DNA of 64,000 nt from contig CM060732.1 in the NCBI GenBank assembly GCA_030704615.1, positions 43,958,001 to 44,022,000 of the forward strand. Direction: 5' to 3'. The notes beneath the pieces were generated by a model. It was given only the letters and a program-made list of their open reading frames with translations. It was not told where the DNA came from and did no database searches. The DNA comes from Takakia lepidozioides (Eukaryota; Plantae; Bryophyta). The position numbers and the translations under genes were made by a program. Shown piece by piece: positions 21,041-62,402 of this stretch. Position 1 is the stretch's first letter. Every line of letters begins with the position of its first letter.

Positions 21041-21609
21041 CTAGAAAGTCCAACTAATTGCTTTTTCATTGAAACCTACAACTTGGTCTATTATTTTAGC
21101 TTGTAACCTATACTAGAAAATTGAATAATGTCGGTTATCATGAACATGGACCCATTAATCATAATGATTAAAATCCTAATGAGGTCTGGATGAATGGTGG
21201 ACGAAAACATTCATCCGGACCTACATCTTCCACCACCTGCTCTCTATCCCACTACCTCTACAGGTGCAGCATCGACGTCTAAAGTCATGCAGCCCCGCAA
21301 CTCTAGTGACTCATAAGGTGAGTGTTTATGTATTTATTAAAAAATTATTATTTTGCTCCGTGTTTTGTTTTTTTTTCCTCCCCCTCTCTTTCTAAGAGGA
21401 GGAGATCTGCGCGTGAGTATCTCAATGTTTATAGGAAAATATTTCAGTTAATGAATTGGTGATGTTTTTTTCTACATTCATACTTTTTCACTGAGTTGGT
21501 AATTCTTTTTTATGCAAATATGGCGTGTAAAGTGCAAATATGCAGTCTTTCAATCAGTATTGGCAACACTAGACCCTAACTAATTGCAGCAACAACATCT
21601 TTCATAATC

Positions 21610-21878
21610 TGTCAAATAAAGTTTACTAGTAGTGTGAAATTGGCCAATAAACAACTAGTTTTTATATATGACTGATCCAAGTGTCAATCTAGAGGTCAAG
21701 ATATTTGTTGGCCCCTGGACAGGGTTTATCTTCACGGCGAACGCACGGTGAGGCTCATCTCTCGAGTTGAGCCTACCGTGTTGGCTATGGCGCGCGTAGT
21801 GCAGATTCCCCATAGCTTTTGGGGTGTGTTTGGCTTGACTCATAATGTATGAGTGACGGTGTCTAGTTTTTATTATCA
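21610..21878 (+). repeat. Partial copy of the LTR-like sequence at 47892-48256
   Basis: tgtcaaataaagtttactagtagt...ggtgtctagttttttattatca matches 47892-48171. Confidence 0.75.
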
Positions 21879-22019
21879 CTCGAGAGATATGACTATCTAG
21901 CTTTGTAGTGCTATGCTAGATAGATTCTTTGTTTTAACACTATGTCTTAAAATAAGGTTTGAAGCATGACTGACAGCCAGACCCGGTTATCAGCGTCACG
22001 TCCGCCAGTGAGCGTCAGA

Positions 22020-23095
22020 CAAAATTGACGGTCGCATTGGCGGTCGTCTAATTTAAAAAAGAAAAATAGCGACATCCGTATTGGCGATCACATAATTTTG
22101 AAGAAAAAAAAAAAAAAAAAAAAAAACCGCCAAAATTGGCGGTCACTTAATTTCAATAATATATAAAAAAAACAAACGACCGCCATAATATGGTGGTCGC
22201 TTTATTTTTCAAATATATTAAAAAAACCAGTGACCGCCATAATATGGCGGTCGCTTTATTTTTAAAATATTAAAAAAAAACCAACGACCGCCATAATATG
22301 GCGGTCGCTATATTTTAAATATATTTAAAAAAACCAGGAACTACCATAATATGGCGGTCGCTTTATTTTAAATATATATATATATATAACCAGCGACTGC
22401 CATAATATGGCGGTCGCTTTATTATTAAATATTAAAATATTTTAATTTCAGACAATACAGCGACCGCCTGTAATGGCGATCGCATTTATTTTTTATTTCT
22501 TTAAATAGAGCGACCACCATTATTGGCGGTCGCTTTTGTTTTTGTTTTTTAAAAATAGAGCTTGTATATTTTTAATTTTTGAAAATGCAGCGACCGCCAG
22601 TAATGGCGATCGCTTTTATTTTTTATTTTTTTAAATAAAGCGACCGCTAGTATTGGTGGTCATTTTTTTAATTTTTTTTAAAGACTGACCGCCATTACTG
22701 GCGGACGCTTGTATATTTTTAATTTCTGAAAATGCAACGACCGCAAGTATTGGCGGTCATTTTTTTTATTTTAAAAATTTACGATGGCCATTACTGGCGG
22801 TCGCTTGTATATTTTTAATTTCTGAAAGTGTTGTGATTGCCAGTAATGGCGGTTGCTCTTATTTTTTATATTTTAAACCGTTAATGGTGGTCGCTTGTAT
22901 ATTTTTAATTTCTGAAAATGCTGTGACTGCCAGTAATGGGAGTCTGTTTTTTTTTGTTTTTTTTTTAATAGAGCGACCACCGTTACTGGCGGTCGTTTTC
23001 ATTGTTTAATTTGTTAAATAGTGACCGCCATTACTAGCGGTCGTTTTTTTGTTGTTTTTTTAAAATGTTGTGACCGCCATGGTGGCGGTCGCTTC
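22020..23095. repeat. Array of GCGACCGCC-N(3-8)-GGCGGTCGC hairpins (left subterminal-type array)
   Basis: About 20 palindromic units separated by AT-rich linkers. Confidence 0.85.
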
Positions 23096-23130
23096 TAGAA
23101 GGTGTGCATTACGCGTCGACTGAGGAATGA

Positions 23131-23133
<3 letters not shown>

Positions 23134-23162
<29 letters not shown>
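23134..23162 (+). repeat. Poly-G tract
   Basis: Run of ~29 G. Confidence 0.9.
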
Positions 23163-23165
<3 letters not shown>

Positions 23166-23560
23166 ATAAGCCAAGGGAGGCTCATTCTCCCATCACTTCC
23201 TCTCTACACAACTTATGTGTGCGTGGCATGTAACTATTCCACGACACGTAGTCACGTGGAGAAGGAGGCCATTGGCTGGGGGGGATTTTTTTTCCGCGCG
23301 ATTTCTGTGAAGTCGTTGCAGAATGCTCCTATAGCCCCTCCTCTGGCTTCCGAGAACATTTCATTCTACAAAATTAGCTTTTAATAACTATTATGGCACT
23401 TATTCAAACCCGTTTCGTGTTAAGGGTTTAGGATCAATTATAATTTTCGATCGAGATCGCAATTCTTTAGTACTTAGTCATTTCCACGTTTGCTTCAGTA
23501 GTGTTTATTTTTCCGTTACTTATTAGTAAACGTCGTTTAGGGTTGCTCCGATTGTTACAA

Positions 23561-24420
23561 AATGGCAGAGGGCCAAGACGATGAGCGTCATGGAAGAGAT
23601 GACCCCTATGAACATGGACCGCCCCTTAAGAAAATCAAATGATCAAGGCATGACTTGAATTGGGAAGTACATGATGACCCTAGCATACTAGCAGAAGAGG
23701 GATATGAGGATTTTCCGGAATAGTTCAAGTGGCCGAGCACGAGAGGCAAAAAATTCGTGAAATGGTGTCACATCAATCAATTGTGGCCTAGACTTAGGCA
23801 TGTGGTGCAAACCAGAAACAATTGCGTGGACTCCAGGTCTTGCATGAACTTGCATTTCCAGCATATGGCGACTGAGGTGCATTGCACATTGTAAGGTGAA
23901 CCACTCTTAAAGGGCTAAATCCCGTACACATTGGCAACCATGTTGTACGTGGAGGTGATACTGTTGCGTCCAATGAATTGGCAAACTGCTAGTAGGAGGA
24001 ACGCAACGATGCAATATCATTTCGTCGACATCCCGAACACGTTTGGAACACCCCCGGCTACGATATTGGGCATGCAGCGAGGGGCACCGGATCCCAAGGC
24101 TATGATATGGCATGCCCGAGCACCGTTGTTTTTGTGTAACAAGTATCTGGAACGTTAGAGGATGAACTGGTGGAAACAAAACAGCGAGTCCGAACCCTAC
24201 AGGAACTTGTGGAATGGCAAAGACTGCGTATAGCCGAGTTGGAGGTTACATTGCAAAACACGCCTCGAAACAATGAAGACACTGTCCCCAATGACGTTTG
24301 AACGAATGACGTGGATATGTCCGCGGAGTTTACAATGTCAGATCACAGTATTGACCGCATCATTGCTGGAATTACGGACGTCCTTTGACCCTCACCACGT
24401 CGTGAGATTCTGCAAGAAAG
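23561..24420 (+). pseudogene. Degenerate coding-like region of unknown, probably transposon-associated, protein
   Basis: MAEGQDDERHGRDDPYEHGPPLKKIK*... continues through several stops into a coiled-coil-like stretch (LEDELVETKQRVRTLQELVEWQRLRIAELE). No family recognised. Confidence 0.3.
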
Positions 24421-25009
24421 TCAACTTTCACCGCAAAGTATGTGGATGCTGACCAGAATTGATCACATGTCATTGGGCCCCTCATTAACCATGAGATCAC
24501 GGTCCCAAGCTCTCCGTATTGGCAGTGCAAATCAGGCCACAACATCACATCTCTTGTCCCCGGATAGTGACGACGAGGATTCGAATGAGTAGCAACGTAG
24601 TACATAGACAATGTGGATTTTTGTTATACCTTGAATTTTTGGAACATACTGAAAGCACTCCGTCAATTTTGTATATGCACCAATTTTGTTAATACACATG
24701 TGCGGGACTTGCAATTTTCAATTGCATGAGCAGCGTAACGCGTTTTCTTCCGGTTTTGCACTCATGTGATGGGGAAGAAGTGGATCACCCTCAAATTTAC
24801 AATGGTATAATATTTGGTCATGACGTGTATGTGGGTATCTGCAATGAACTCCGAAAGATGGATAACAAGGAAAATAGATGTTAACCAATAAGTTATAATG
24901 AGTTACGAATGCTCGTCTTCTTGACAAATTTCGCCTACTCTCGTATTTCATAATCATGTCGAAAATTCGATCTACGTATGAAGAACATACCCACAAAGTT
25001 AACGAAGCA

Positions 25010-27995
25010 CAATATAATTTCGATTGATCTCATATTACTCTGGGACCTGTCAGATGGTATATTGGACATACTGGCCAAGTTTCGAAGTGAATAAAAATCA
25101 TTTAGATGGGCAATCATCCATTCGCCCATTGGACAAATTTCGTTTCATCTCATATTACTCTAGGTCCACTTAAAATCGTTTGGATGGGCAACCATCCGTT
25201 CAGCCATCGAATGAATTTTGATTGATCTCATATTAGTCTGGGACCTGAGAGAGAGTGTACCGAATGTACTCACAAAGTTTAAAAGCAAACAAAAATGATT
25301 TGGATGGACAACCATCCGTTCAACTGTTGCATGAATTCCGTTTGATGTGCTATTACTCTGGGACTTATTGGATGGTGTTTCGCGTGCACATGATTTTTCT
25401 TTCATTCTATTTTTTAACCATGTGTCTAATGATGGCATATGCAACGTGCGTGCCAAATTTCATAGTGAACAAAAGTCATTTGGACCCAAAACCACAGTTT
25501 CTTCCCTAATTTGCACTCCAAACTAGAACGTTTTTTTTTTTTTAAATCATTTTTGTTTGGTCCAAATTTTTGTAGGGATTTAGCGGTGGGAAAGTTGAAG
25601 CTAGAAAACAAGATTGAGCCAAAAATAAAATTGTTAGGTAGCAGAAAACCCCAATCAAAGACAATGTAGACTTGTTTATTTGCTTGAAATTCATTTAAAC
25701 TCAATTTAATTGTAAATTGATGGAAGGGCGAGGGCGTGGTTGGGGAGGTAAATGTTTGTTTCTTCTATTGGTTCTCCGCATATGTGTTGCACACATATTC
25801 AAGCACATGCGGACAAAAGATGGGCCTCAACCTCATCCGTTCAATGGGTACATTGACTGTTCACCCATGACATGATTTTTTTTTCGCAATGAACAAAATT
25901 GGATGACACATGAACGCCTCATTCGCCCATTGAATGAATTTCAATTGATCTCATATTACTCTGGGACCTGTAAGATGGTACATTGGACATACACGCCAAG
26001 TCTCGAAGAACGAAAATCATTTGGATAGGCAACCATCTGTTGGCCCATTTGATTAATTTCGTTTCATCTCACATTACTTTGAGACCTCTTAGATGGTACA
26101 TTGAGCACACTGACAAAGTCTGAAAGCGAACCAAAATCGTTCGGATGGGCAATCCCTAATTTGCACTCCAAACTTGATTTGTCTTTCTACTAAATGTACT
26201 CTTCACAAAAGAGTTCTGCAATAATGAACGAAGAGAACACTTTTAGAAATTTTTATTTTTGTTTGGTCCAAATTTTTGTAGCGGGTGAGAGGGTTGAAGC
26301 CAGAGAACAAGATTGAGCCAAAAATAAAACCGTTACGTCGTAGAAAACCCCAATGTAAACCTATTTATTTGCTTGAAATTCATTTAAACACAATTTAATT
26401 GCAAATTGGTGGAAGGGCGAGGGCGTGATTGGGGAGGCAAATGTTTGTTGTTTTTCTTGTTTCTCCGCACATGTATTGCGCACACATTTAAGCACATGCG
26501 GGCAAAAGATGGGCCTCAACCTCATCTGTTCAATGGGTGTATTGGCCGTTCACCCATGACAAGATTTTTTTTTTTTTGTAGTAAGCAAAATTGGATGACA
26601 CGTAAACGCCTCATTGGCCCATTGAACGAATTTCGATTGATCTCATATTACTCTTGGACTTGTCAGATGGTACATTGGACATACTGGCCAAATCTCGAAA
26701 CGAACGAAAATCATTTGGATAGGCAACCATCCGTTGGCCCATTGGACGAATTTCGTTTCATCTCTGGGATCTTGGATGGTACATTGAGCACACTAGCAAA
26801 CTCTGAAAGTGAACCAAAATCGTTCGGATGGGCAACCATCCGTTCAGCCATCAAATGAATTTCGATTGATCTCATATTAGTCCAGATTGAGCCAAAAATA
26901 AAATCGTTACGTAGCAGAAAACCCCAATCAAAGACAGTGTAAACGTATTTATTTGCTTGAAATTTATTTAAACACAATTTAATTGTAAACTGGTGGAAAG
27001 GCGAGACGTGGTTGGGGAGACAAATGTTTGTTGCTTCTCTTGTTTCTCCGCACATGCGTTGCACACATATTCAAGCACGTGCGGGCAAAAGATGGATCTC
27101 AACCTCATCCGTTCAACGGATGCAGTACCCGTTCACCAATGACATGATTTCTTTATCGCAATGAACAAACGTGGATGAGAAGCGAACGCCTCATTGGCCC
27201 ATTGAACGAATTTCGATTGATCTCATATTACTCTGGGACCTGTCAGATGGTACATTGGACATACTGACCAAGTCTCGAAACGAACGAAAATCATTTGGAT
27301 GGGCAACCCTCCGTTGGCCCATTAGACGAATTTCGTTTCATCTCATATTACTATGGGACCTCTTAGGTGGTACATTGAACACACTGACAAAGTCTGAAAG
27401 CGAACCAAAATCCTTTGGATGGGCAATCATCTGTTCAACCATCGAATGAATTTCGTTTCATCTCATATTAGTCCGGGACCTGATCATGATATATTGAACA
27501 TAGTGGCAAAGTTTGAAAGCAAACAAAAATCATTTGGATGGTCAACCATTCGACCGCCATTTTTTGTCGCAATGAGCAAAACTTCATGATAGGTGAACGC
27601 ACCGTTGGCCCATTGAACGAATTTCGTTTTATTTTATATTACTCTGGAACCTGTGAGACGGTATACTGAAGACGCTGCGGAAGTGTCGAATCAAACAAAA
27701 ATCATTTGGATGGGCATCCATCCGTTGGCCCATCAAACAAATTTCGTTTTATTTCATATTACACTGGGACCCGTCTTATGGTATGTTAAAATACTGGCAA
27801 AGTTTGAAAGCAAACCAAACTCATCTGGATGGGCAACCGTCCGTTGGGCCATTGAACGAATTTCGATTGACATCATACTCGTACGGGACTTGTGAGACGG
27901 CGTACTGAACATACTGGCAAAGTTTGAAAAGAAACAAAAATCATTATGATGGTCAACCATCCGTTGTCCTGTCAAATGAATTTCGTTTCATTTCG
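25010..27995. repeat. ~120-bp tandem satellite with higher-order ~650-720-bp blocks
   Basis: The unit atttcgattgatctcatattactctgggacctgtcagatggtacattggacatactg...aaaatcatttggatgggcaaccatccgttggcccatt recurs more than a dozen times. The longer block cagattgagccaaaaataaa...ggaagggcgagggcgtg...gatgggcctcaacctcatc occurs at ~25610, ~26310 and ~26885. Confidence 0.85.
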
Positions 27996-28169
27996 TATAG
28001 GGGGGTGTGCTTTAATTGCGGGAAAACTAGGCACATGGCCAAAAAGTGCCCGAAACCCCAACAGTTGAACATGATAACGGCGACTACGGAGCTTTCCGAA
28101 GACTCCATCAACCGCTTGGTGGAGGCAGTGGTCGCCAAGACTTTGCAAGGTAGGCGACTACACGTGTGA
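27996..28169 (+). mobile_element. Gag zinc-knuckle fragment
   Basis: GVCFNCGKTRHMAKKCPKP (CX2CX4HX4C). Confidence 0.55.
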
Positions 28170-28254
28170 GCTGTTCCAGAAGGCTGGAGCATCACGTAGC
28201 GGAAGCGGCTTCATGTTCATAAGTAAAATTTTTTTTGGAATTAACGTGTCGTTG

Positions 28255-29770
28255 TTGTATAGGCGGTCGGTTCATTTTTTTTAAAATACAAAAAAGAGCG
28301 ATCGTCATTGGGCGGTCGCATCATCTTTCATATATACCAAAAAGAGCGACCACCATATGGTGGTCGTTTTATTTAAAACAAATACCTAAAAGAGCGACCG
28401 ACGTATTGCCGATCGCTTCATTTTAAAAAAAAACAAAAAAGAACGACCGCCATAGGGCGGTTGCTTCACTTTTTAGAAAAACTTAACAGAGCGACCGCCG
28501 TAGTGGCAGTCGCTTCATTTTTATTTTTAAAGAAAAAAAGAGACAGCCATTGGGCGGTCGCTTCATTTTTAAAAAATATATAAATTAAAGAAATTCTTAA
28601 AAAAAACGAGCGTCCGCCGAATTGGCGGTCACGTCAGTTTCTTATAAAGCGAAGAACAGCGACCGCTGTATAGCGGTCGCTACAGTGTTTTATTTTTATT
28701 TATTTTAAATAATTATTTAAAATTAAAATTAAGTTTATTTTTAACAAAAACTTAAAAGAGCGACCGCCGTTATGGCGGTCGCTTCAATTTCTTAAAAATC
28801 GAAAAAGAGCGACTGCCATAGGGCGGTCATTCAGTGACTTCATTTTTTATTTGAAAAAAACTTCATTTTTTAAAATATTAAAATTTTATTTTGTTTTCTA
28901 AAAAAAACTTATAGGAGCGACCGCTGTATTGGCGGTCGCTTCACTTTCTTCAAAAAGCCAAGAAGAGCAAATGCCGTATGGCGGTCACTTCATTTGTTTA
29001 TAAAAAAACTTAATTTAAAATTTAACTATTTAGTTTTTTTTTTAAACAAAAAAAAAACAAAAAAAACCTAAAGGAGCGACCGCCGTATTGGCGGTCGCTT
29101 CAGTTTTTTAAAAAGTGAAAAAGAGCGGCCTCCATATGGCTGTCGCTTCAACGAAAATGAGCGACCACCGTAGTGGCGGTCGCTTCATTTTTTTAAATTT
29201 AAAAAAAAACGACTGCCATATTAGCGGTCGCTTAATTTTATTTATTTTTAAAAATAGAGCGACTGCCGTAGTTGCAATCGCTTCATTTAATTTTCTTAAA
29301 AAAAAGAGCCGTTGCCCCTAAATGGTGGCCGCTAAATTAAAAAAACAAAACGAGCGAACGCCACTTGGCGGTCGCTGCATTTTAAGAGATAACAAATAAA
29401 GAAACGACCGCCAAACGGCGGTCGCTTAATCTTAGAATTCAAAATAAAAATATGCGACGGCCGGCGAATGGCGGTCGCTGTATTTTCTTAAATATTTTTA
29501 AACTGCGATCGTGGCGGTCTCTTAATTTTTAAAATTAATAATTTTTAAGCGACCACCAATATAGGCCGTTGCTTAATTTAAAATATAAATTACAAGCGAC
29601 CGCCAATATGGGCGGTCACTTCATTTAAAACTTCATATAGTATCGGGAACCACCAATAAGTCAGTCATTTAATTTAACAAAATATTAAATTACAAGCGAC
29701 CGCCAATATGGGTGGTCACTTGATTTAAAAAATAATAACTTTTAAGGGACCGCTAATATGGGCTGACGTA
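28255..29770. repeat. Array of GCGACCGCC..GGCGGTCGC hairpins (right subterminal-type array)
   Basis: More than 20 units such as gagcgaccgccgtattggcggtcgcttc, with AT-rich linkers. Confidence 0.85.
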
Positions 29771-31366
29771 CTTTTTTAAATGAATTAATAAATTTTTAAT
29801 AATTGGCCACGTCCGTTTTACACTGTGGCTGCCATGTCATTACAAATGGTAGTAATAAATCGTAAAAGTCAAATAAAAGTAGTTACAGCCTACTGTTGAT
29901 TGAAAGTTGTAACGTACCCTGTGTTGAAGATCCGAGTTGCATTTAGTCTGTACAGATTCAGTGTGTCTGCATAAGTTGAAGTCAAGAGTATTGGGACAAG
30001 GCGGAGTAGTACCTTACAAGCAAGCGATTTGCAGCAAAGCCCACTCGACGACTCACATTTGCCGTAGCTGCACTTTGAGCTGTGTTGGTGGCGGTGGTGT
30101 TGAAAAGATTAGACACTCACCGGGTGGGCTATAGGGATACTTCCTTCGGATTTGTAGCAGGGGAATTGAAAGGTACGGGTCTGAGACTGATCTCTCAATT
30201 CGTGGACGTCAACCATGTGTAGGCCGCATGGCAGCTCCAAAACTAAGGGACGGAACCCTGACTCGAATTGAGTTCGGGCTGTCTGCCTGGATTGCATGCG
30301 GGCGAGTGACTATCTGCGTTTGCCACTAAAGTGATGCTGCAAGTCGAATATGCTAGAATATCCCGAACCATATATAAGAGCCTCAAGTACGAATTTAAAA
30401 TTTTGGGCACATGTACAAAAACAAGGAGCCTAGAAATGGTGTTTATTTGTTGGGGAACATGTAGCGTACACAAAAAATAAAATAAAATACTAGTATTTGT
30501 CCTTTTGAAAAATAAAATAAAATTACACCTTACAGCCCTGTTTTGATCTGATTTACATTATACATAGTCTATTTGGCTATAACTTTGGCATACCAGGGCC
30601 GTTTGACCCAAAATTTGGGCAGGGAGCTGCGGAAAGGGGAGATCTACCTACCTAGATTTTAGGACCCAACCAAAAGTCTATGGATTTTCTTGAAAAATAA
30701 AGTGGTGTCGGTTCTAAAGTTGACCAAATGCAATCCTAGTACACTGCTGGGGAGAATTGGCCTGTATGCATCTGCGAAGTTTTGTATGTCCGTGATGCAT
30801 GGCTGGAGGACATAATGAGACCATTGAAGGGCTCATTTCCTCGTTGAGTCTTCAAGTGTGTGGAGACAAAGTTTATGTTTCCCGATGCACATAGACTGAG
30901 CTAAGTGGAAGCCAGTTGGATGAGCTTGTGGCATATTGGGAATCAGGCAACGGACAGAGTGTTGTGGGAGAGAGCAATTCTATAGCTGTAAGTGAAACAC
31001 CAAAGTAGGTGGAAGCTAGGTTTGGAACACAGCCAAAGACAGCCCCCAGGACCAAGGTGTTCAGCCACAAGGCCATGGTGTACTTGAGCAAGAGAGCGGG
31101 AGCTGCACATGTGCGTGCAATCAGGTGTCAACGCCAGTCTCAATCTGCACGAGGCAATCACGAGCGGGGGTTCATTAGCAATGAACAGTTTGTTCTACTT
31201 GAAGGAGATGCAGTCCTTCGCAATGAGGACACCCGCAACCGTCTCAAAGCTTTCGAGTTGAGAGACCGTCAGACCATACCTTTATTTTCTTTAGTATTCA
31301 GTGAGCGGGAGATAGGGGAGTATTGCTTTGTCTCTACCTGGCAAAGAGAGGAGGAGGGCTGGTTAG

Positions 31367-31803
31367 TGTAACAAGGTAGAATCTAGAAGGTTCTAGATGG
31401 AGGAGGAAAGTTCCCTAGAAGTTTCCAGAATAACTAGGAAGGATCCTAAGAAGTTTGACTTAAGGAAGTTTGACTTGAGGCTCTCAAGTCAAACCTCTAA
31501 GATATTCATATTATGGAGAGTAGGTCAAATCTTTGATAAAGTCATATTGAAGAGAATATGTCAAACCTATGAAGGTTGACTTTAGCGAGTATATTTGATA
31601 AAGTCGTATTGTGAAGAATATGTAAAACCTAGGAAGGTTGACTTAAGGAAGCTTTGACTTGATGCTCTCAAGTCAAACCTTTAAAATAATCATATTGTGA
31701 AAGGTATATAAACCTGCAATGAAAGCCTAGAAGGCATCAAGTTGTTTTGGGAAAAAGTTGGGAAGTACTTCTATTCTAATTTGTGTAGATCCCGGGTGTT
31801 ACA
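31367..31803 (+). repeat. 5' LTR of a Ty3/gypsy element
   Basis: Begins TGTAAC and ends GTTACA, has a TATA-like gtatataaa at ~31705, and is followed directly by a PBS. Confidence 0.7.
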
Positions 31804-31804
31804 A

Positions 31805-31816
31805 TGGTATCAGAGC
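31805..31816 (+). promoter_or_regulatory. Primer-binding site for initiator tRNA-Met
   Basis: tggtatcagagc, 1 nt after the LTR end. Confidence 0.85.
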
Positions 31817-34800
31817 CTAGTCTTTCTTAAAGTTGGGAGTGAATACCTTCTTTAGGAGGATTCGATTAAGATGTTTTATTTTTAGAGATTTTTGTTGTTC
31901 ATATTTTTAAGTGTTAAATAGATAGTAGTGATGGTGCGCCATAACAATAGTATAAAAATTTTATGGACTTAAATCAACCTCCTTTCCGTGATTTTCTTTC
32001 GGAGTGTGAGTTCAAAATTATTTGTCATCGTAAAACAGAAATTAGAGAGATGATAGTACAGAGATTTGGAGAGGAACAATATCAAGAAGTGTTACAAAAC
32101 CCACGACCTGTCGTCTTTCCTATAATTAGAAATTAGAAGGTATACATATGTGTATATACATAGCTCATGGATTGAGGTAGACATTTTCCGCCTAATTTTC
32201 CACCGCCAAATGTATTTAGTATCAATGTGCGCGCCATCGACAAGCATCATCTTGTGAGATTTTTAGTTGCAGAATTTGGGGTAGAATTCATGAACCTTGT
32301 CATGAGTTCAAACGTCCCTTTTGTATTACCAATAGTCACGTACGGGATGGTTTGGGATTGCACTATTTACATATTATATTATGATAAGATAATAGAGATA
32401 GTATACATTAATTTTAGAAGACAAACACCACGAAGGAATGAGTAGTGGAGCAAGATGGCGGACAATGAAGAAATGGTGGACAACGCACACACTACTCATC
32501 AAGCCAATGATCAAACGGTGTGGATAATGGAGCGCTTACATGAATTGCAGAATACTCTTGTCACGACCCAACAACAAAACAACGTGTTGATAGAAGAGCT
32601 TAAACAAGTGAGACAATCAACCGCCCCGGGACTGGTTGCTGATGGGTCGGATACGTTGCTGCAAAAGATGACCAAGACATGCAAGGTTGAGCCGTATAAA
32701 GGAAGTCGCGCAATGGGAGTCCTATAAGGATGGATTTATCGAATGGAGGTACATCTGTCATATTTCCCTACATCAAGTGATTTGGACCACGGAATGTTTA
32801 TACGATCTTTTCTACTCGACAATGCTTCAACATGGTTACAGACATGGGAGAGAAGACAGATTGCAAAAGGAGAACTTTTATTATGGAACACCTTGAAAGC
32901 GGGACTGCTCCAACAATTCAAGACAGTAGATGTTGTTACAACTGCTCGAATGAAATTATGGAACTTGAAACAACGCGGGAGTGTGCAAAATTACATTGAA
33001 TATTTTTTGAATCTTCAGGTCCAAATCGAAGACATGAGTCATGCAGAAGCTTTAGACAACTTCAAAAGAGGATTGAAGAAGAAAATTCAAGGAGAGGTAA
33101 TTTTACGCAACCCGATTGATGTCCACGAAGCAATTTCATTGGCCCAAAAGATTGAAGGGACGCTACCAAAATACGACGAAGGTATACACGTTTCATTGAA
33201 CCAATACGGACCAACGCCTATGGAGCTTGGAAATCTTCGAAGACGAGATAACTTCCAATACTCTCAAAGAAATAGGCCGAGAATCAGATATGGGGAAGAT
33301 AACACACAGCGGCAAATGAAATTGAATGACAAGGATGTGACCTCCTCAACATTCTCACGAACAGAAGGACAAATGGAAACTCGACAATGTTACAACTGTG
33401 GAAAATACGGACATCTTGCAGCCAACTGCCGAAGTGGAAGGTACAATCGACAAATTTATCGAAAACCTCTTAACTGTTGGTGTATTTGGAGACACAAAAA
33501 GATCTATCGAAGAGACAGATTCGTTGGGCGGAGTGGTGACAACAATTTAATATGAAGATCGTCTATGTGGAGGGAAAACAGCAATTGGCAGATGCAATGA
33601 AGAGGCGTACGTTCGAAGTTGCATGAGATGTCAACAAAACAAGTCAACAAACCGCAAGCTAGCAGGTCTTTTACAACCACTACCAGTACCAAACAGACGT
33701 TGGGAACATATGAGCATGGATTTAGTTTGTGAGTTACCTCAAACCTCATCGGGATATGACACTATAGTGATCTTTGTAGACAAATTGAGTAAGATGATAC
33801 ACATCCGTCCCACTAGAAAATCCGTCACTGCACCTGAACTAGCTCGACTATATCTGGAAGCGGTCTATTCTCATCATGGGCTATCTAAAGTTCTCATTAC
33901 TGACAGGGGTACCCAATTTACTAGCTTGTTTTGGAAAAGCTTATTTGGTCTTTTCAAAACCAAATTAGCTATGTCAACAGCCTATCATCCGGAATCAGAT
34001 GGACAGACAGAGCGAGCAAATCGTACAATTGAAGACATGTTGCGGGCCTTTACGTTAGAAGAACAAGAAGAGTGAGATTGGTTATTACCATTGGTAGAAT
34101 TTTCATACAATAACTCGGTCAACGCGTCAACAAAAGAAACTCTTTTCTTTTTGATGTATGGTGAACACCCAAATGTGCCAACAACTCTTACGAAGTTCAA
34201 TTTACCAAAAGAGAAGTTGTCCAAGGTAGTCGCGACTAACGCATTTGTGCAACAAATTCGACGGGGAGTACGTCAAATGTTGAATAAGGAAATAATAAGG
34301 GTCAATTCACTACCTGCGAATGAAGAGGAGCCTGACTACGCTTTGCAGCCTGCATCTGAATATAATATTGCGAAACTCACAGGTATGTTCCTCACAAATT
34401 CCATCATATTCACCTGGTCGCGCTGCTCACACCATACAATACTCAGCGGGCTTCTCTATTTTGACTCCTTATATCCCCTCTTTACCCAATCAAATGCATG
34501 CATGAGAGGACAGTGATGTAAGTCATGAAATTTTCTCCAAGAATGGGGATACACAAGTGGGACAGAAAGGAACAGAAAGGCTGATGCAGAGGCTAGATCC
34601 CTTCCCATCTTTGGACATAGACACATGGTAAGCACCTAAAACATTGAAGCTACTTCCATCCCTTTACAACTTAACAGGGTAACTGAACAAAACATACCCC
34701 ACTGGAATGTTGGCAATACTGCGTCAGTCCAAACTGAATAACTGCCCATGTCCAGGCAATTCATAGGATGTTGTACACTTTGGCACCAAACTATTGAATT

Positions 34801-35145
34801 ACTTGTATAGGGTTGGGATTTGAGAACAAAACATTCAGAACCTTTATTGCTCGTTAACTGTAATTGTTCGTAAAGTTGAAAATACTGTCTGAAGTCCCAT
34901 CATGTGCTCAAGTGTTGCAGTACCTACTTTCCCCATAGAATCACTTTTCTTGATCTATGGCTCATATCCAGTACATCTTGGAAGGTTTTAAAAGGATTTC
35001 CAACTGGTCCCTTCTTTGTACACTAATCTGTTTATTATGAGTGCAGTGTGGTAGGTCATGATGCTGTACTTCGGGCCTGCCATTATTGGAAGTTGGTCAA
35101 CAGAGCTAAAGACCCAGATAGTTTTGTGGATTTTTTCGGTTCTCA

Positions 35146-35310
35146 GGTACATGATGATCTTGTGATGGTGGATACATCGGTTGCAGACCAAGTGACAGCA
35201 TGGCATCGCAGCCAAAGCATGACTGACGTATATGCTGGTGATCATTGGTGCTCTGGTAGAACCTGTACATACCATCAAATTGGTGACATTTTCTTGTGCG
35301 AGAAGACTGA
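35146..35310 (+). pseudogene. Exon fragment of a SKIP31-like F-box protein gene
   Basis: DTSVADQVTAWHRSQSMTDVYAGDHWCSGRTCTYHQIGDIFLCEKT resembles the Cys/His-rich C-terminal region of plant SKIP31-type F-box proteins (recognised from memory). It is truncated after EKT. Confidence 0.55.
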
Positions 35311-35399
35311 CCCACAATGTTGTTCCTACCTATACTCAGACTTTGCCAACCTCCAATACTCAACCTTTGTGCACGGTTTAGATTCTGAACACTGCCCCT

Positions 35400-35570
35400 G
35401 CCCTGGTGGACATGTATGCCAAATGTGGGTGCATCGAGGATGCCAAGGGAGTGTTCAACACTATGGCTGAACGAGATGTGGTGTCGTGGAGTGCGATGCT
35501 TGCAGGATAGGGGGTGCGGGATGGAGGCTTTGGAGACCTATGATCAAATGATGGGGGAAGGGGGCACCTT
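35400..35570 (+). pseudogene. PLS-class PPR gene fragment
   Basis: [36 protein letters not shown] is a canonical plant PPR motif junction, with an in-frame stop. Confidence 0.8.
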
Positions 35571-36769
35571 CCTCAATAGCACAGCGGCTACAAGTGGGTA
35601 GATGGTCAACTGGAAACAGCAGCAGCAGCAGCACAATTCATAGAATAAGGCGCTGCTAATGAAGGTACCTTCTTCAATGTATTTCACCTTGTTTTCCCCT
35701 GCTATCAGAGTCGTCCCTAAATTTTCATGTTGAATTCTGCAAGTTAGCTCGTTGGTGGATCTATGGTGGTTTTGGAGTGATTTTGACATGTTACTGTCAA
35801 TGTGGTTGACAGGAAAGTATCGAAAAATAGATAACATAGACTCGAGGAGAAGCTCTGGAATGAATACATTTCCGCCCTCAGTCAATGGTGGAACAATCGA
35901 GGCAAAATGTGAATGTCTTTTGGAAGCAGACGCAAGTCAGCATAGGAACTAGTGTGATAAGTAGGGTTGGGGTGTTTGCTCAAGCAATTCTAGGCTATCA
36001 TTCTTAGCTGCTAGCAGCAAGGCGAGGATGTATGCATGATTTGTGCAGGGGCATGGATAGCTGAAGGAGCAGGGATAAAGTGTGGGTCCAGATTCATCCA
36101 AGAGGGCCGGATTTCAAGCTCCAGATTACCTATGATTCCCTATGGAAGGATAGGTACAAGAAACCTGCATAGGTCGATGGTCAACTGGAAGCCACAGCAA
36201 CAGCGACACAATTGATCAAATCAAGCACTGTTAATGAAGGCAACTTCTTCAATACATTTCACCCTGTTTTTCTCTCTTATCAGAATCGGCCATATCAAGA
36301 AGTATTGCACTGTTTAACAGGGTCCTTGATTCTAGTAGCACTAGAACAAACTAGTATTACAACCCATGTGTGTGGGCTTACTTATCTTTTGCTTATTGGG
36401 CCTTTTCAGGCATGGATTTTTGGACCTTGTGGCATTTGAGGTGTCCATTGGGACAGTGGTCTCATTTGGATTTTTGTAATATAATTTACAGGACGTGTAT
36501 TCCCTTGTACTTGTCTATTTTGACTGTCCTTGTGGTTGTTAGTATGCAAGAGGGTCCATTCTGTTTTTATATCGGAATTTCACCATGTAAAGAAGAATTT
36601 AAATCATTTAATCTATTTTTATTTTATATAACATTATTAAATTAAACAATAATACCATTTAATAAAAATTTCCAAGCTGCTATCCCAATGTTTTTAAAAA
36701 TAAAATATAAATTTAAGAATTTATAATTATAAATATAAACTATTAAGTTATTTTCAAAAAACATTCTTG

Positions 36770-37238
36770 ATGACACGTGGCATAAACCCTGCTCGAACTA
36801 GAATATGTGGCATTATATGACACGACATTCTTTTATCCATATTTTCACCACGTATAAAGATAAGTAGTCATATATGCTAGTCATATATTCTGTTGAAGTG
36901 CCACATGTCACATCTGGAGTGCAATAGGTGTCGTGACGTGTCGCTTGTGCAGTGGTGCACGTGTTCCTCTAAAGCCTCTCCATGTAGGCAACGCTCAGCA
37001 GACAATGTAGTCATATAGTTAGTCATATGTAAGTCATAGAGTTGTGACTACATCACTCTCTTATGCATGACTCTAGGTGCCACGCACGCAGTCACGGCTA
37101 TGACTTGCAAAACGCAGTCCTAAAGACTAGTCGCTATGACAGGGTTTTTTTCACTACAAAGTGATGTAGTCATGAACGCATATATGACTGAAAAAATAGT
37201 CATACGTGCAGTCATAAAAACGCTCATCTGTTGTAGTG
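36770..37238. mobile_element. Right terminus of a CACTA (En/Spm) transposon with subterminal repeats
   Basis: Ends ...ctgttgtagtg (reverse complement CACTACAACAG) exactly where gypsy protease coding begins. Many tagtcata/atgact repeats lie in 36860-37215. Confidence 0.65.
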
Positions 37239-40200
37239 AGACATCTCTGGGGGGATCAGAGAGGGCTCGAAGCATGACACGCCATGAGCTGTTAATTAGA
37301 CTGCAGTGGGATCATCCTAAAGATGACTCAGTTATGTGAGCCAAGGCCATTGTGACGGATGCAGTTTCATATGATGTGTTGGTTGGTGGGGCAGTATTAT
37401 ATCCCATGGGCTTCACCCTGGATTTTTGGGAGGAGTCGGCCTCGTATAGGCCTGGATGGCAATCATGAGATGGTCGTCGTGTGCAACTCCCTGTGGCATT
37501 CATTGGGGGTGTTGCAGCTGCCCACCGGGGCAAGATGCCGACACTAGCAGCCTTCACAGGTGTAGTGAGTTGGCCTGGAGAGTTGCTAGAAGGCAATGCT
37601 CATGCAGAGGATGTGTCACCTCCAGCAGAGCAAGATGATATGCATGGTACGGCAGAGTTGTCTGCCATGGTTGTTCACACTCCATTGTGGGGCACGAGGA
37701 AAGATTTGTAGCAGACTACTAATAAACGGGTGCAACGAGTCTGGGTAGAGGCATTTGTACCGTCAGGAGAGGATGAGAGTACAGTGATTGCACTAGGACA
37801 ACCTCAGTTGTCGCCATTGGATACCACACCTATTATGTGGCAGTACCCGGATGAAGGCATATGCCTTCTAGACTTGTTTGGCGGGATCAGCACTGGATTA
37901 GCTGCAGTGCTGCAGGCAAGTGTATGAGTTCGGCGTTACCTGTATGTGGAGAGGGATGAGACTGCACGACGCGTTTCACTGCGCTATGTTGCTCAGTTGG
38001 TGCAGCAGTACCCTGATTTGTTGTCGGTTTCTGCAGTTCGTGGATACCAGCAAGCCTTGCCAGCAGATATTTCTTTGCTGGGGTTGGAGCGGGTTGGCCC
38101 TATTCACTTGGTAGTGGCAGGTTGGCCTTGCCAATGGCATTCATCAGCCGGGCATGGTAATGGGTTACAAGACTCGAGGTCACGCCTGTTTTGGGAGATG
38201 TTGAGAGTCATGCGCTATTTACAGCTTCAACAGGCAGACTCTCCAGTATATATCTTGGAGAACGTGCCATTGATGGGTGATTCTCGGGCCAAGGTGATGG
38301 CCAATGTGCATCAAGTGCAGTCGTGGCTTGGGTCAGCAGTGTTGTTGGATGCAGCTGCAGTGGGGTCACGGGCTCATCGTCCACGGCTATGGTGGACCAA
38401 CTTGATGTCACCCACACTGCGCTAGCGTGCATTTGATGGGGTGCAGCGGCCAGCGCACCTGATAGTGGATAGCATCTTGGACTCAGGGAGGCAGTCTCAG
38501 CGTGTGAGACATGTTGACCGCTCACCTTTGGTAGTGGTCAACAGGATGGATCAACCACGAGCAGCATTACCTACACTGCTCGGCTTCCCAGGATCTCATG
38601 CTTTCTGGGATAGTGGACCTGACCTCCTGTGGGATGCTTACTTGCAGCAGTTAGTGGAGACCAGTGCTGACGAGCGTGAGCGGGCAATGGGTTTTACCAC
38701 TGGTACCACGACGGTGCCGTCTTTTTCTGAGGCATCACGTCGTCAGGTGTTGGGGCAAACAATGGATCTCAATTGCTTTACCTGGATTATCAGTTTGGCT
38801 ATGGCTGAGCAGCGCAGAGTGCAGAGTACACTTCCCTCGACGGTCTCTCTGCCTACCGAGACGGTACAGGCAGTGAGTGGGGGCGAGCAGGTGAGGATCA
38901 CGAGGTGCAGGCATCCATGGCACACTAGGGAGGTGCTCGAGGTTCAGAGGGAGTTGGCAGCCAAGGCGGCGGTGATGGATGAGATAAGGGATTTTTCTCA
39001 GGTTGAGGAGGTCCTCAAGGATGAGACGATGGGGCAGGATGAGGCATTGTCATTGACAGAGCAGGTAGTGGTCACTGTTCAAGAGGTTGCAGCATAGCAA
39101 CCACGGGACGCGTCTTCTACCTCTAAGCCTGCTGGACTCAAGGTTGCAGTCACGGAGGACAACTGGGAGCCTGATGTTGGACCCATAGTCACCGGAGGAT
39201 AGAGACGACATATACGTCGGTTTTTGAGGGCTTATAGGAACTGCTTTGCCTTCAGTTTGAAGGACTTGGAAGCACTGAAGGGTCAAGAGATTCGCATTGA
39301 ATTGGCCACTGACACGCCAATCTTTCGGAGACCCTATAGATACAGTGACATGGAGAGGTCATTGATTCAGATGAGGACTTAGGACCTCTGGGAGGCTGGT
39401 TTGGTGGAGCTATCTGGTGGAGAGTATGATTCAGCCACAGTGATGCCAGCCAAGAAGGATGTATATGACAATTGGACGGAGAGATGTATGTGGGGTGATT
39501 ACCGGCCTGTAAATCGTCAGACCAAGTCCGATAGGTATGCCATGCCAACACCAGAGGAGATCTTTGATGCTATTGGGCATGCCAAGGTCTTTAGCACTTT
39601 GGATTTACGATCCGGATATCACCAGTTGCCGATCAAGGAGGCAGATAAGCAGAAGATGACATTCTGGGGGATCATTGAGCACGGGAAGGATTGCCTATAC
39701 CAGTGGCAATTCTTACCATTTGGGCTTAAGAACGCTCCTGCAGAGTTTCAGAGAGTCATGGACAGGATTCTAGCAGGGGTGGAGTTTGCTCAGTGTTATA
39801 TAAATGACATCATCATCTTTAGTGCTACGGTGGAGGAGCATGAGAAATACCTTCAGGTGGTATTTGAGCGCTTGAGGGCACACGGATTGAAGTTACATCC
39901 GTGGAAGTGCAAGATTTTCCACAACCAGATTGAGTATCTGGATCACATGATATATCCTGGAGGATTGGGGGTACAGCAGACTAAGGTAGAGGCCATTGCA
40001 CAGATTCCACGCCCCACGGATGTGAGCCAAGTTTGAGCTTTCATGGGGTTAGCAAACTATTATAGACGGTTTGTCAAGGGATTGAGTGCCATTGCAAAAG
40101 CTCTAACCAAACTGACCAAGGTGGACCAGCAGTGACAGTGGCAAGATGAGCAAGAACGAGCTTTTCAAGAACTCAATGCGAGGTTGACCTCGGCGATTCC

Positions 40201-42110
40201 AAGCCCCAACATACTCTAATCTGTATGTAGCTGAAAATGACACCCCTTGATGGGTCGTCTCAAGATGGTGCTCACACAAATGGATGATGAGGGAAAAGAG
40301 TTTGTAGTGGCTTATGCTAGCCGCTCGAACAACGCTGTAGAGGCTAAGTATAGCTCATATGAGGGAGAGTGCTTAGCTGCAGTGTGGGCCGTGACACACT
40401 TCAGGTGCTATCTATACGACAATCTCTTCACCCTTGTCACGGATCACCAGCCACTCAAAGTGGTTGATTGAGTCAGACAAGCTTACGAGGAAGCTTGCAC
40501 GGTGGGCACTCATACTTCAAGAGTATGACTTTCAGGTTGTGCATCGACTGGGTTTGGTCAATCGGGATGCGGATGGGTTGAGTCGCAATCTATGCACGAG
40601 CCAACAAAATGACACTGGATCTTAATGGCATGGTGAGAAATGGTGCCCAAATGACACGCATCTGCATTTCTGTGTATCTTGGCAGCGGAAGGGCAGGTTG
40701 GACCTACAACAAGGATGACTATAGACCGAGTGTCTGAGGACCCTGAGGCCAGCGATGGGCCAGGTGACACTAGAGATATACATGAGGATTCAACTGTGTT
40801 GGACTATCTCCGCACTAGAGACACGACAACAACTGCGATTGCCAAGGAGAGGGATCGGATCCTATAATGAGTCAAGAGGTTCAAGTGGGAGGGGACACAC
40901 CTACTGGACGAGTGTGGGAGGATGGTCAAGTGAGGATTGTGCCTCACCCAACACAGCGAGCACAATTAGTGCGGCATGCCCATGAAGAGTTGGGGCATTT
41001 TGGGGCACGACGCACTCACATTTACTGCAGGGGCAACATTGGTGGCGTGGTATACACACAGAGATGCAACAATTTGTGGCTAGGTGCATGGTGTGTGGTT
41101 CATTCAACGCCCCTACACCACAATTGCATCCTCTTCCGATCATGGGATTGGGCTACAGGTGGAGTCTAGACTTCGCAGGGCCGTTGCCACTGACCATGCG
41201 CCACAACAAGTACGTGTTGGTGATGGTGGAGCACTTCTCCAAGTGGATCGAGTTGGTTCTATTGCCTGATAAGACTAGTGAAGGGGCTGTGTATGCATTT
41301 TTGGATCATGTACTTAGCCGATTCGGTGCTCCAGCTGAGGTACTCACGGACCAAGAGAGAGAATTTTTGGGGGAGTTTCAAGTATTGTGTGACAAAGCCT
41401 TGATAGACCACCGCACTACTTCTCGGGATCATCCTGAGGCCGATGGCTTGGCAGAGAGAGTTGTGCAAACGGTTAAGAGAGGATTGCGCAAGTATGGTTT
41501 GCAGAAGGGGCACCTAGGAGATTAGGACCTTCAGCTACCTTGGTTGGCCATGGGCTATAGGTTTAGAAGCAAGCATCACTTGCCTCGTTCTCACCTTATT
41601 TCCTTCTCTTTGGCCGAGAGCCAGATTTGCCTGCATCCATTCGTAGAGAAGCTGCTATAGTTCTCAACCTTGACGATCCGGACGTGTGGGCACGTGGATA
41701 TAATCAGCAGAGTTGTTCAAGAAAGTCATACCCATGGCTTTCGAGAACCTTGCCATTGCACAACATCGTGATACGTTGAGGTATGCTACCATACGTGGTG
41801 GGGGCTATCGTCCTGGGGTTCGGAGATTTAACCCTGGTGACTATGTTTATCTGCAGCAGACTGCTCCCACGACCCTGGATGTGACTGCAGGACGTACTAT
41901 TTTGAGGGTTCGAGAGGTGTTGCCATCAGGAGTCCTGATCTTGGAGGGTCGGGATGGCATGACTTGAAAGGACCATGTGCGTAATTGCGCGCCATGTCAA
42001 CTTCCGAATATTGATGGAAGGATTGACCCAAACTTGGCGGCGGTACCTGCAGGTTTGCGGTGCATGTTGTGTGGATCTGTCAGAGGGGTGACAACCACTA
42101 TTGCACCACG
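37239..42110 (+). mobile_element. Ty3/gypsy retrotransposon pol, decayed: PR (C-terminal half) - C5 DNA methyltransferase - RT - RNase H - integrase - SH3-like tail - start of a possible PHD finger
   Basis: Protease tail SYDVLVGGAVLYPMGFTLDFW. RT: DYRPVN, FSTLDLRSGYHQL, PFGLKNAPAEFQRVMD, YINDIII. RNase H: VVAYASRSNN, YSSYEGECLAAVWAV, VTDHQPL. Integrase: WSLDFAGP, VLTDQ, HPEADGLAER. Tail: FNPGDYVYL..., LRCMLCG. Confidence 0.9.
37855..38800 (+). pseudogene. C5-cytosine DNA methyltransferase domain (DNMT3-like) within the gypsy pol
   Basis: Motifs in canonical order: I LLDLFGGISTG, II YVERD, III ADI, IV VVAGWPCQ, V GLQDSRSRLFWE, VI ILENVP, VIII DAAAVGSRAHRPRLWWTNL, IX ERERAMGF, X RRQVLGQTMD. 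Same frame as PR and RT, with stops at 37925 and 38423. Confidence 0.9.
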
Positions 42111-47279: not shown

Positions 47280-47569
47280 TGCTAGAATTCCATTTATTTA
47301 TGATGTCTTACTATGATTTCGTACTAACTTCATAAAATATATACTAATGTATATAAAATGTGATATCCTTCTATGGTTGTATCCACTCCCACTATCCAAT
47401 GCAACGTGGATATAACCAATCTCCATCAGGAACCATCTCAAGAGGTGGTGTCAAACATCCCATGTGCCAACCTCTTGAGCATCGATCACACACTAACATG
47501 GTGGCTGCCCCTTGTCGAACAATTTTTCGGATAGATTCTTAAGCACATTGCAGAGATGGGAAGCGTTGT

Positions 47570-48256
47570 GATGATGTTTGTCCATCAACCCAGCGGTCCA
47601 AGCTAGAGACCAATACATGATATCATGACTCAAGTTCACAGATTGCAAGACGACGAATAACGATGGGGCTACTCTTGTACCCGGCCTCTTGGTCTAGAGA
47701 GTTTGAGTACAATAGGGACAGTGATAGAGGATTTAGTGAGGCTGTGGCTATTACCTCTTGTAGCTATTTGGAGTTAGAGGGACCTAACCACCAGTTAGGG
47801 GGGCGATTGTCAAACTGATTTGTGTGTATGTATATGTTGTGTGGTTTGGACAACGATGTAGTTGTGTAGCGAGGTGTATGCGCACGACAGCTGTCAAGTA
47901 AAGTTTACTAGTAGTTTGAAACTGACCAATAAATAACTAGTTTTTATATATGATACTTGGGTTTGATCCAAGTGTCAACCCAGGGGTCAAGATATTTGTT
48001 GGCCCCTGGACGTGGCTTATTTTCACGGCGAACGCGCGGTGAGGCTCATCTATCTCGAGTTGAGCCTCCCACGTTGGCTATGGCGCACTTAGTGCAGATT
48101 CCCCATAGCTTTTGGGGTGTGCTTGGCTTGACTCGTAATATATGAATGATGGTGTCTAGTTTTTATTATCATTGTGGCAGACTGATTTGTGTATATGAAT
48201 ATGTTGTGTGGTTTGGACAGCGATGCAGTTGTGTAGCGAGGTGTATGCGCACGACA
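47570..48256 (+). mobile_element. 3' end of a Ty1/copia element: RNase H remnant, PPT, a deleted LTR (47808-47889) and a full LTR-like copy (47892-48256)
   Basis: TRPLG..FEYNR trace. The purine tract ttagggggggcga precedes TGTCA at 47808. Both LTR-like units start TGTCA and end CGCACGACA, and 47812-47889 repeats 48180-48256. Confidence 0.55.
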
Positions 48257-49337
48257 AATCTCATGTACAGTCAACTGACTCATGCATGCAATATATGCAA
48301 AAATGTAAACTATTTGTACCTCCTTTCAAACCGAACATGACCTTTATGGTCTTCATGTTAGCTGCCATATACCACTCCACTTTGTAATCACTAAAACTTG
48401 GAACGTCAAGAAGTTGTTCATCTTCCTAAGCTTGAATCAGTGAAAGAATCTTGATTTGTTGGAGCACCCAGTTTAAAACCTCTGTGTTTTCTTGTACCGC
48501 TTGAAATTAAGCTACAAGCTAAATCTCCATCTCACTTTGCACACTGAAATACTTTCCACTATCAGGAGTGATTGTCCACCGATGGGTCTAATGCACGGTT
48601 CATGAGTGTAATACTCATTTTTTCAGCTTCTATACAGAAATATCTGCAAAACCAACGTGATGTAAGTCGCGTCAGCGCTTGGTCTGATGCAACTCAAAGT
48701 GCGAACCGAGTCCTAATAAATGTATCAAAGAAGAGTCTTTGTTCAAATTCTATCAAAGACTGAGGTAAAATTTGATATTGAAGATGTCCACTTTTATAGA
48801 CGTTCGTGCAAGGATGACAAATCAGCATCTCAATAAAATTAGTAAACAGGTTGGACCCAATGAAGTTTTGAAGATCCGTGACAAGAATGGATCACCCAAG
48901 CATGTTATAATGCTATTTACAAAAAGTTTAAAGGTGGTGTAAAAATTGCGGCCAAAAGGATCAGGACAGGATGTCTACCCAATCCGCATCAAGTCTCAAA
49001 ATTGTGCGAGGAATTGAACTTAAAGCTATAGATTTTGTAGGTGAATACCACCACTTGAACAACATCCTTGTAGTTCCAAAAAATTCAAGAACGGTGAAAC
49101 AAAAAAGAGGTCACTCGTGTAACACTATCATAGCACAATTCTTTTTTCGCTGATATGGAGCAGGTGCAACATACCATGGTCGAATTGGAGACTCGCTGGT
49201 AAGTTTTATACAGCTTGCACCTATAAATTCTGTTTTTTTAATCTTCAATTTTGTATATTTTTAGTATTGATTGCTGAGATTTTGATTCTACAGAATTGAA
49301 AGGGAACCCACTACTATTTGTCTTGAAGCTTGATGAG

Positions 49338-61765: not shown

Positions 61766-62402
61766 CATCAACTATGCAATGTGGTATGTGGACGACCATG
61801 ATTTGAAATGTGTAATTCACATCAATTCGTCGGCGGTGCAATGATATGGCCTCCAACTATAACGGAGTGAGCTCTGAGTGACAACTTTTAAACACATTTG
61901 TCATTGCACCGTTCGAAGTCTACATGTCTTGCTGTCGCTATGCACTACAATCATCTTTTGAAGATGATCCTAACTCTCATTGTTATTTGAGGAGGGAGGA
62001 AGGTCTTCCCGTGGCAGCCTCTATGGCGCACACTTTGTGAGGATATTTCCGTCCTCGTAATTGTAAAAGTGAAATAAACATTTGTAATTGCACAATGTTG
62101 GATGCTGCAATTGTAGGCCTCATGGCAACGACGCAATGGCGTGAGCGTTGCACGTGAGCGCGCGAGCGTACGCTCACGCAGAGTGACGTGGCGTGAGCGT
62201 ACGCTCACGCCAGCTGACGGGCGTGAGCGCTGACGTGGCGTGAGCGTCATGTCAGCATGCTGATGTGGCGGTAAATGATGACGTGGCACTGTCCGTCAAC
62301 TGCCACGTCAGCATTAACATGCGCCGCCTATAACCGTGGATGGTCCTATGACCGTGGAATTAATGCAGGGAATCTTTGCCTAAATAGAATCAAGACGAGC
62401 GT

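Follow-up and report, generated by a model that had tools for sequence, protein, structure and literature searches.

A decayed Ty3/gypsy retrotransposon of Takakia lepidozioides with a DNMT3-like methyltransferase ahead of a conserved stop codon

The 64,000-nucleotide stretch of Takakia lepidozioides DNA analysed here (assembly GCA_030704615.1, contig CM060732.1, positions 43,958,001 to 44,022,000 of the forward strand; the window) contains a decayed Ty3/gypsy retrotransposon that carries a DNMT3-like cytosine methyltransferase (DNMT) domain between its protease (PR) and reverse transcriptase (RT). This copy is dead, having stops inside the domain, frameshifts and a lost gag. Sequence comparison leads us to lean towards an old Ty3/gypsy family of seed-free plants in which the first open reading frame (ORF1) encodes Gag, protease and the DNMT3-like enzyme and ends at a leaky stop, with the enzyme likely methylating new cDNA in the particle. 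The original prediction had placed the element in a Ty3/gypsy lineage of land plants that bears a DNMT3-like domain between protease and RT and resembles an element of the alga Klebsormidium. This proposal is upheld: relatives in Marchantia, Calypogeia, Sphagnum and metagenome loci carry the DNMT too, and the domain is not a one-off insertion. A DNMT combined with split repeats has already been published for Klebsormidium; the land-plant members, the conserved stop, the putative self-primer and the internal junction appear to be new. The literature searched, with most subscription papers and Repbase reports outside the search, describes neither land-plant members of the family nor the stop, the primer or the junction, and the accessible parts of PMC11244446, PMC8616336, PMC10952607, 10.1101/2022.06.16.496473 and 10.1101/2021.11.30.470311 contain nothing on land-plant members.

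The element extends from 21610 to 48256, far past the 37239..42110 first stated, and has the Ty3/gypsy Pol order of protease, RT, RNase H (RH) and integrase (INT), with a DDE integrase; the layout of its clade is Gag-PR-DNMT, a stop, then RT-RH-INT-PHD. Features are on the plus strand unless stated otherwise. Read with X at stops, 37235-40201 yields 989 residues with 10 stops, and this translation matches Pfam DNA_methylase (E 6e-9, above the cut-off) and RVT_1 (E 1e-26); pieces downstream of RT match RT_RNaseH and rve, so that the three profile searches suggested previously (DNA_methylase, RVT_1 and rve) all found their match. The six ORF starts noted before (37136, 37481, 37730, 37946, 38441 and 39401) do share one reading frame; however, the piece from 37136 is mostly foreign and the protease remnant begins at ~37239. 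What is left is the C-terminal half of an aspartic protease (37239..37474; 42% identity to the Asp_protease_2 region of the relative P0017, E 7e-18; no Pfam match when searched alone). The catalytic half and the entire gag are absent from the element, and a lenient gag search of 21879-37238 gave two weak matches and otherwise nothing but a zinc knuckle that belongs to another, nested element. The DNA before the remnant (36900-37238) is a repeat of high depth that contains TAGTCATA units, has CACTACAA at 37152 and closes at 37238 with TTGTAGTG, which we take to be a CACTA-type end. The window was compared with contigs of the same species label, including runs X1 and X7, and a contig of X7 has this TTGTAGTG-ending DNA joined to other sequence.

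The DNMT3-like domain (37832..38839) is interrupted in this copy by stops at 37925 and 38423. It is followed by a family-wide stop in a readthrough-type context, TAG CAA CCA (39095..39103), which ends ORF1, and by RT (39215..40036), which is in frame with ORF1, has YIND as its active-site motif in this copy and has Ty3 Gag-Pol and a related RT/RNase H as its closest solved proteins. RNase H (40076..40532) and the integrase (40921..42056; zinc-binding part, core and C-terminal part, with acidic motifs at 41163, 41343 and 41448) are frameshifted, and RNase H contains a 70-bp inversion at 40198-40267. The frame is therefore not broken only by point stops, as had been thought, and a single ancestral PR-DNMT-RT-RH-INT pol is not supported either, since in this clade DNMT ends ORF1 and the conserved stop separates it from RT. 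A PHD finger, overlooked at first together with the split repeats and the primer site, starts at 42057..42083, is interrupted by an insertion and continues inverted at 47398..47513 on the minus strand (PF00628, E 1.3e-8), resuming locus L001 where the plus-strand match ends. The break reflects an LTR-like (long terminal repeat) insertion followed by an inversion. A duplicated AGGGG marks the two break points (42079-42090 and 47509-47530); TG follows one of them and CA precedes the other.

The C5-methyltransferase motifs reported earlier, including PCQ and ENV, are confirmed: LDLFGG lies at 37868, GWPCQ at 38120, LENV at 38255 and RAHRPRLWWTNL at 38369, with further motifs at 38672 and 38738, and motifs I, IV, VI, VIII, IX and X are unrearranged, the nearest type being DNMT3. 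The likeness to DNMT3 is supported by profile and fold searches alike, both of which put DNMT3A/3B/3C first. A 15-sequence profile matched these proteins best in the PDB (E 4e-22, with 3e-9 for the best DRM-type enzyme and 2e-8 for HhaI), the predicted fold (pLDDT, a predicted local accuracy score, of 85) had them as its best Foldseek matches (E 3e-18), and DNMT3A/B/C were also the nearest solved proteins in single-sequence comparison. GWPCQ, ENV and HR-R are unchanged in all 15 aligned domains. The ratio of non-synonymous to synonymous substitution rates (dN/dS) of the DNMT is 0.10-0.14 in three pairs among loci L024, L034 and L035, indicating purifying selection between families; synonymous sites are saturated between the window and other loci in this analysis, and RT comparisons with L016 are unreliable because of an internal rearrangement in that locus. 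CpG depletion was considered as a mark of the DNMT family and rejected, since the observed/expected ratios across elements (0.27-0.98) span that of the host gene (0.35).

A methyltransferase captured just once from the host, or carried along as a functionless passenger, is very improbable, and the capture part is already refuted. A passenger would be in keeping with the dead window copy, with its stops in the DNMT domain, and with a dN/dS near 1 (0.88) for L001/L016, two copies of one family, a value that weighs against our interpretation. Both capture and passenger are opposed by the 202 clusters (50% identity) found at E<=1e-30 in a full protein scan with the DNMT, by the matching groups in RT and DNMT trees, by purifying selection between families and by same-species contigs, which cover DNMT and RT alike at a summed depth thousands of times that of the flank. 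The same depth suggests a family abundant in the host, which can only be inferred because summed contig depth is not copy number.

A protein search with the DNMT region gave 57 matches among 7992 candidates scored. The relatives in Marchantia, Calypogeia and Sphagnum have 47-72% identity to this region, and further relatives occur in Chromochloris, Monoraphidium and Closterium; protein searches with the window DNMT returned no host DNMT3 and no protein named Klebsormidium. Viral contigs gave 16 loci; each of these matches only a portion of the DNMT domain, and weakly (25-50% identity). Among the best 51 of 74 metagenome loci, which were mapped, and other mapped relatives, two layouts are seen, Gag-PR-DNMT-RT-RH-INT-PHD and RT-RH-DNMT-INT-PHD. 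RT precedes DNMT in 46 of the 52 proteins with both domains, and DNMT adjoins the integrase in those mapped; some RT-first relatives (P0053, P0247) have a G-patch domain between the two. No Chromo domain was matched in the relatives or window scanned, where a PHD finger is found instead. The RT tree has 35 rows, after random removal of 30 of the 44 unnamed RT-first proteins, and no non-DNMT outgroup; in it, the eight rows of the stop-bearing type, including one Marchantia model that bridges the stop, form a clade (100/98) that is sister to single-ORF elements. A quick-method DNMT tree, with long and partial outgroups, recovers the same groups. Several Marchantia gene models annotated as hypothetical genes are ORF1s of the family (the P0004 cluster with P0070, P0071, P0077 and P0078, ~1280 aa, several on chromosome V; also Mp_4g09160). 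What was a curiosity of one alga thus extends to land plants and to a genetic model, Marchantia, in which a retrotransposon's use of its own methyltransferase becomes testable.

Many relatives are proteins that end ~80-150 residues past DNMT motif X; the window stop lies at 115. The DNMT-before-RT layout was found at 39 loci, 31 of which include the DNMT/RT junction, and a stop is present there in all 31 (23 TAG, 8 TAA), with CARYY next in 30. When one locus is taken per family, CARYYA is exact in five of seven, the other two reading CAACCC and TAGCCA, against a background of 10 in 4663 in-frame positions. PMC3441728 refers to CARYYA as a signal for readthrough. Changes in the stop context occur only at degenerate positions, except in L016 and L025, and the residues encoded after the stop vary (QP, QS, QL), so that the constraint is on the bases. 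Comparison with the same-species contigs shows the stops at 39200 and 39380 to be peculiar to this copy, with >99% of X1 depth differing there, while for 39079-39114 no difference reaching 30% is listed. RT begins in frame 34-41 codons after the stop, with no conserved ATG. Judged from the related loci, the TAG at 39095 belongs to the family's layout and is not decay, and it is quite likely that the stop is read through now and then. The stop is likely to be a later feature of one branch, since the stop-bearing rows form one clade sister to single-ORF elements.

Several observations weigh against a conserved readthrough stop. As many as 26 of the 31 junction loci belong to one Sphagnum-like family, some being probably the same site assembled twice; this family reads CAACCC with an ATG directly after it, eight stops are TAA, and L025 lacks CARYY. 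No stop separates DNMT from RT in the sister elements P0158, P0293 and P0193, so that not all relatives require one. Alternatively, the stop could be tight, with Pol made from a spliced or separately started RNA and the conserved TAG serving as a splice acceptor. We consider this improbable. A predicted intron does join DNMT to RT in four public gene models (P0007, P0008, P0014 and P0039), but the four joins are all different, conservation of CAR-YYA would have no splice rationale, and an X7 contig, which is only guessed to represent RNA, spans the stop site without a gap. Similarly, an ATG occurs within 14 codons of the stop in four of seven representatives, but its position is not fixed among them, and in the window and L034 the stretch from the stop to RT lacks an in-frame ATG.

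The ends of the element also depart from the usual. It had been suggested that intact LTR-bounded copies be sought: bounds of the form A...B-A-B and target duplications were found, whereas ordinary paired, identical direct LTRs are not the arrangement. The A...B-A-B plan is seen in the window and L023. In the window, the 5' terminal repeat A1 (21610..21878), which starts with TGTCA and ends with CA, agrees with A2 at 246 of 269 aligned bases. At the other end are a polypurine tract (47798..47806; similar tracts in L023, L034 and L044), repeat B1 (47807..47889, ending CACGACA, 78/83 identical to B2), repeat A2 (47892..48171) and the terminal repeat B2 (48172..48256), which is the 3' end of the element. 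The 4-bp duplication AATC flanks the whole (21606..21609 and 48257..48260); L023 has AAGG, and TG...CA ends with a 4-bp duplication are seen in these two cases only. The ends, 26.6 kb apart, are assigned to one insertion on the basis of orientation, matching repeat ages and the 4-bp duplication; a match of 4 bp is expected by chance about once per 100-250 tries, which weakens the last of these. Split repeats may be a reason why LTR-finding software could overlook the family.

Between B1 and A2 lies an internal junction, GACA-GC-TGTC (47886..47895), consisting of both element ends and a 2-bp spacer. It is also present in L001, L023, L024 and L044, and in L034 with a GT spacer; L044, where GACA-NN-TGTC is found, carries the other domain order. 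In the window and in L023, neither integrated end retains the spacer. The A/B joint differs among copies and retains 9-10 bases of the primer-binding site in L018/L019, which fits end-joining. We slightly favour a route in which reverse transcription would yield an ordinary linear cDNA with an LTR of B+A, as judged from the position of the polypurine tract before B and of the primer site after A; the integrase would then open the internal junction and discard the 2-bp spacer, and the original cDNA ends would be ligated together before or after insertion to give A...B-A-B. In the circle junction of the IS3 family, an rve-family DDE enzyme likewise acts on two abutted ends and a short spacer is lost on insertion; those are bacterial DNA elements without reverse transcription, and the likeness is one of analogy only. 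If true, this use of an internal junction by a retroviral-type integrase would open up a new way for LTR elements to integrate.

This route has observations against it, in that the junction is clear in just 3 of the 12 3' ends scanned, L009 and L010 stop after the first B, and the A-B-A form that a circle with two equal junctions should produce was found in none of ten 5' ends. The absence of this mirrored form would suit another possibility, which we regard as doubtful, that DIRS/PAT-like template jumps on an RNA running through B-A-B restore the split repeats while the integrase uses ordinary free ends; A-coding-B-A-B is the DIRS layout as described in PMC5890265. Such jumps are harder to reconcile with a polypurine tract that abuts B1 and a primer site that abuts A1, with the variable A/B joint and with loss of the spacer at both integrated ends. 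Membership in DIRS/PAT itself was rejected, as an rve integrase is present and Phage_integrase matched none of the 55 relative proteins scanned. Troyka was also rejected, its accessible description (PMC12440569) giving CG...CG ends, a 3-bp duplication and animals only, in contrast to TG...CA and 4 bp here.

Two further observations concern the 3' region. Despite CpG depletion, the CpG of the right end CGACA is retained in the window (47882-47889, 48249-48256) and in L001, L010, L019, L023, L024, L034 and L044, whereas decay has turned it into TG in L009 and in one copy of L023. A motif of GATGGGGC followed by a CCCGGCC-like part (window 47662-47690) lies in the 3' untranslated region 130-200 bases ahead of the polypurine tract; it is conserved across otherwise unalignable lineages (also L001, L009, L015, L023, L024 and L034), with the first part only in L044.

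The site directly after A1 (21879..21888) is a putative primer-binding site that lacks a TGG start and is complementary to a putative self-primer inside A1 (21757..21766; mean pair probability 0.94; matched in 4 of 20000 shuffles). Complementarity is 16/16 in L023 and 15/15 in L034, with 0 of 20000 base shuffles each, so the helix measures 10, 16 and 15 bp in the window, L023 and L034, respectively. Between these lineages 5-6 of 10 primer positions have changed on both sides with pairing kept, and the folded helices have pair probabilities of 0.88-0.97. The covariation suggests that the RNA probably starts inside A and primes itself as Tf1 does; the helix may alternatively be a structural hairpin. 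Among 11 5' sites of the Sphagnum-like family, seven have at most one mismatch and one has three; in the remaining three the partner is poor (five or six mismatches of 16), which counts against self-priming. Nothing usable was found in L005, L024, L036, L038, L041 and L042, where 5' ends are missing or matches are of low complexity.

Taken together, RNA starting within A would be translated into Gag-PR-DNMT, and occasional readthrough of the stop would add RT-RH-INT-PHD to the ORF1 product. With the DNMT in the Gag ORF ahead of a leaky stop, it would be as plentiful as capsid and would meet the new cDNA in the particle; we give cDNA an even chance of being its substrate. From this layout one would expect methyltransferase to be far more plentiful than RT, transcripts to start at the primer and cDNA to be joined at its ends. 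A finding that weighs against an active enzyme is that the Klebsormidium DNMT was without activity in yeast, a result called inconclusive in PMC5890265. It is also possible, but unlikely, that the methyltransferase is a nuclear enzyme that modifies the insertion site, the inserted copy or host loci rather than cDNA in the particle. The family does contain a chromatin reader, the PHD finger, DNMT follows RT in most two-domain proteins and adjoins the integrase where mapped, and the host DNMT3 of mosses performs de novo methylation according to PMC10952607. In this clade, however, the DNMT lies in the Gag ORF, apart from integrase and PHD finger, which suits a role in the particle, and no targeting domain is attached to it in the proteins scanned. 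More speculatively, and with little confidence, one may envisage a clade of self-priming Ty3/gypsy elements with DNMT3 and PHD throughout the green lineage, from chlorophytes to mosses and liverworts, which integrate via an IS3-like internal circle-type junction; its land-plant branch would have put the DNMT ahead of a leaky stop for packing at capsid level, and the enzyme could methylate the CpG of the right-hand att end (CGACA) and so control the junction cut.

The closest described element is KnitGypsy-Dnmt3 of Klebsormidium nitens (de Mendoza et al. 2018, PMC5890265). According to the accessible parts of that paper it, too, is a gypsy element whose Dnmt3-like domain is unrearranged; its repeats are split in a DIRS-like manner and its DNMT is under purifying selection. 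Its DNMT is described, in the peer-review file, as lying in the RT's own ORF, whereas a conserved stop lies between them here; a single open frame for DNMT and RT is found in the sister clade P0158/P0293/P0193 but not in the window clade. It is presented there as an acquisition of the Klebsormidium lineage, whereas the window family occurs in land plants, and those parts make no mention of a PHD finger, 4-bp duplication or self-primer. SymbioDIRS-Dnmt3, described in the same source, combines a Dnmt3-type domain with A-coding-B-A-B repeats as here and methylates CG in yeast, but uses a tyrosine recombinase, unlike the DDE integrase and target duplication of the window element. Tf1/Sushi and Tcn1 share with it a primer site complementary to a stretch of the LTR, and Tj1 of Schizosaccharomyces japonicus needs a stop inside its polyprotein, although after Gag rather than after Gag-PR-DNMT; as far as PMC4600332 and PMC6317226 could be consulted, all three have ordinary LTRs and a chromodomain and lack a DNMT, in contrast to split repeats, PHD and DNMT here. 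EpiLTRs (bioRxiv 10.64898/2026.05.21.726589) are LTR elements as well, and they too carry both a cytosine methyltransferase and a chromatin reader; in the accessible text their DNMT is sister to DNMT4 and accompanied by DAM and a chromodomain, unlike the window family, and 'streptophyte Gypsy-DNMT3', the preprint's name for KnitGypsy-Dnmt3, is called a distinct acquisition.

The window contains several other features. At 60528-64000 a 3.5-kb near-perfect inverted duplication overlaps a transposase-like frame (58793-60364, 523 aa) with no Pfam match. An uninterrupted GT4 glycosyltransferase frame on the plus strand (11575-13299) has its best named matches in Sphagnum and Ceratodon, with which it groups in a quick tree that included no named liverwort or hornwort; this makes a moss the likely host. 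Within the nested DNA, a PPR repeat fragment on the plus strand (35400-35510; E 3e-4, below the cut-off) is possibly a captured gene piece. A second Ty3/gypsy piece, nested inside (~31800-34500, plus strand), from which protease and RT are missing, has a gag with zinc knuckle joined to integrase and a TGGTATCAGAGC primer site, presumably of the tRNA-iMet type. Directly after the primer site of the DNMT element, at 22079-29760, short repeats that contain GGCGGTCGC form two arrays, one in part the inverse of the other, around an array of 120-bp type; these GGCGGTCGC arrays are likely to be subterminal repeats of a DNA transposon.

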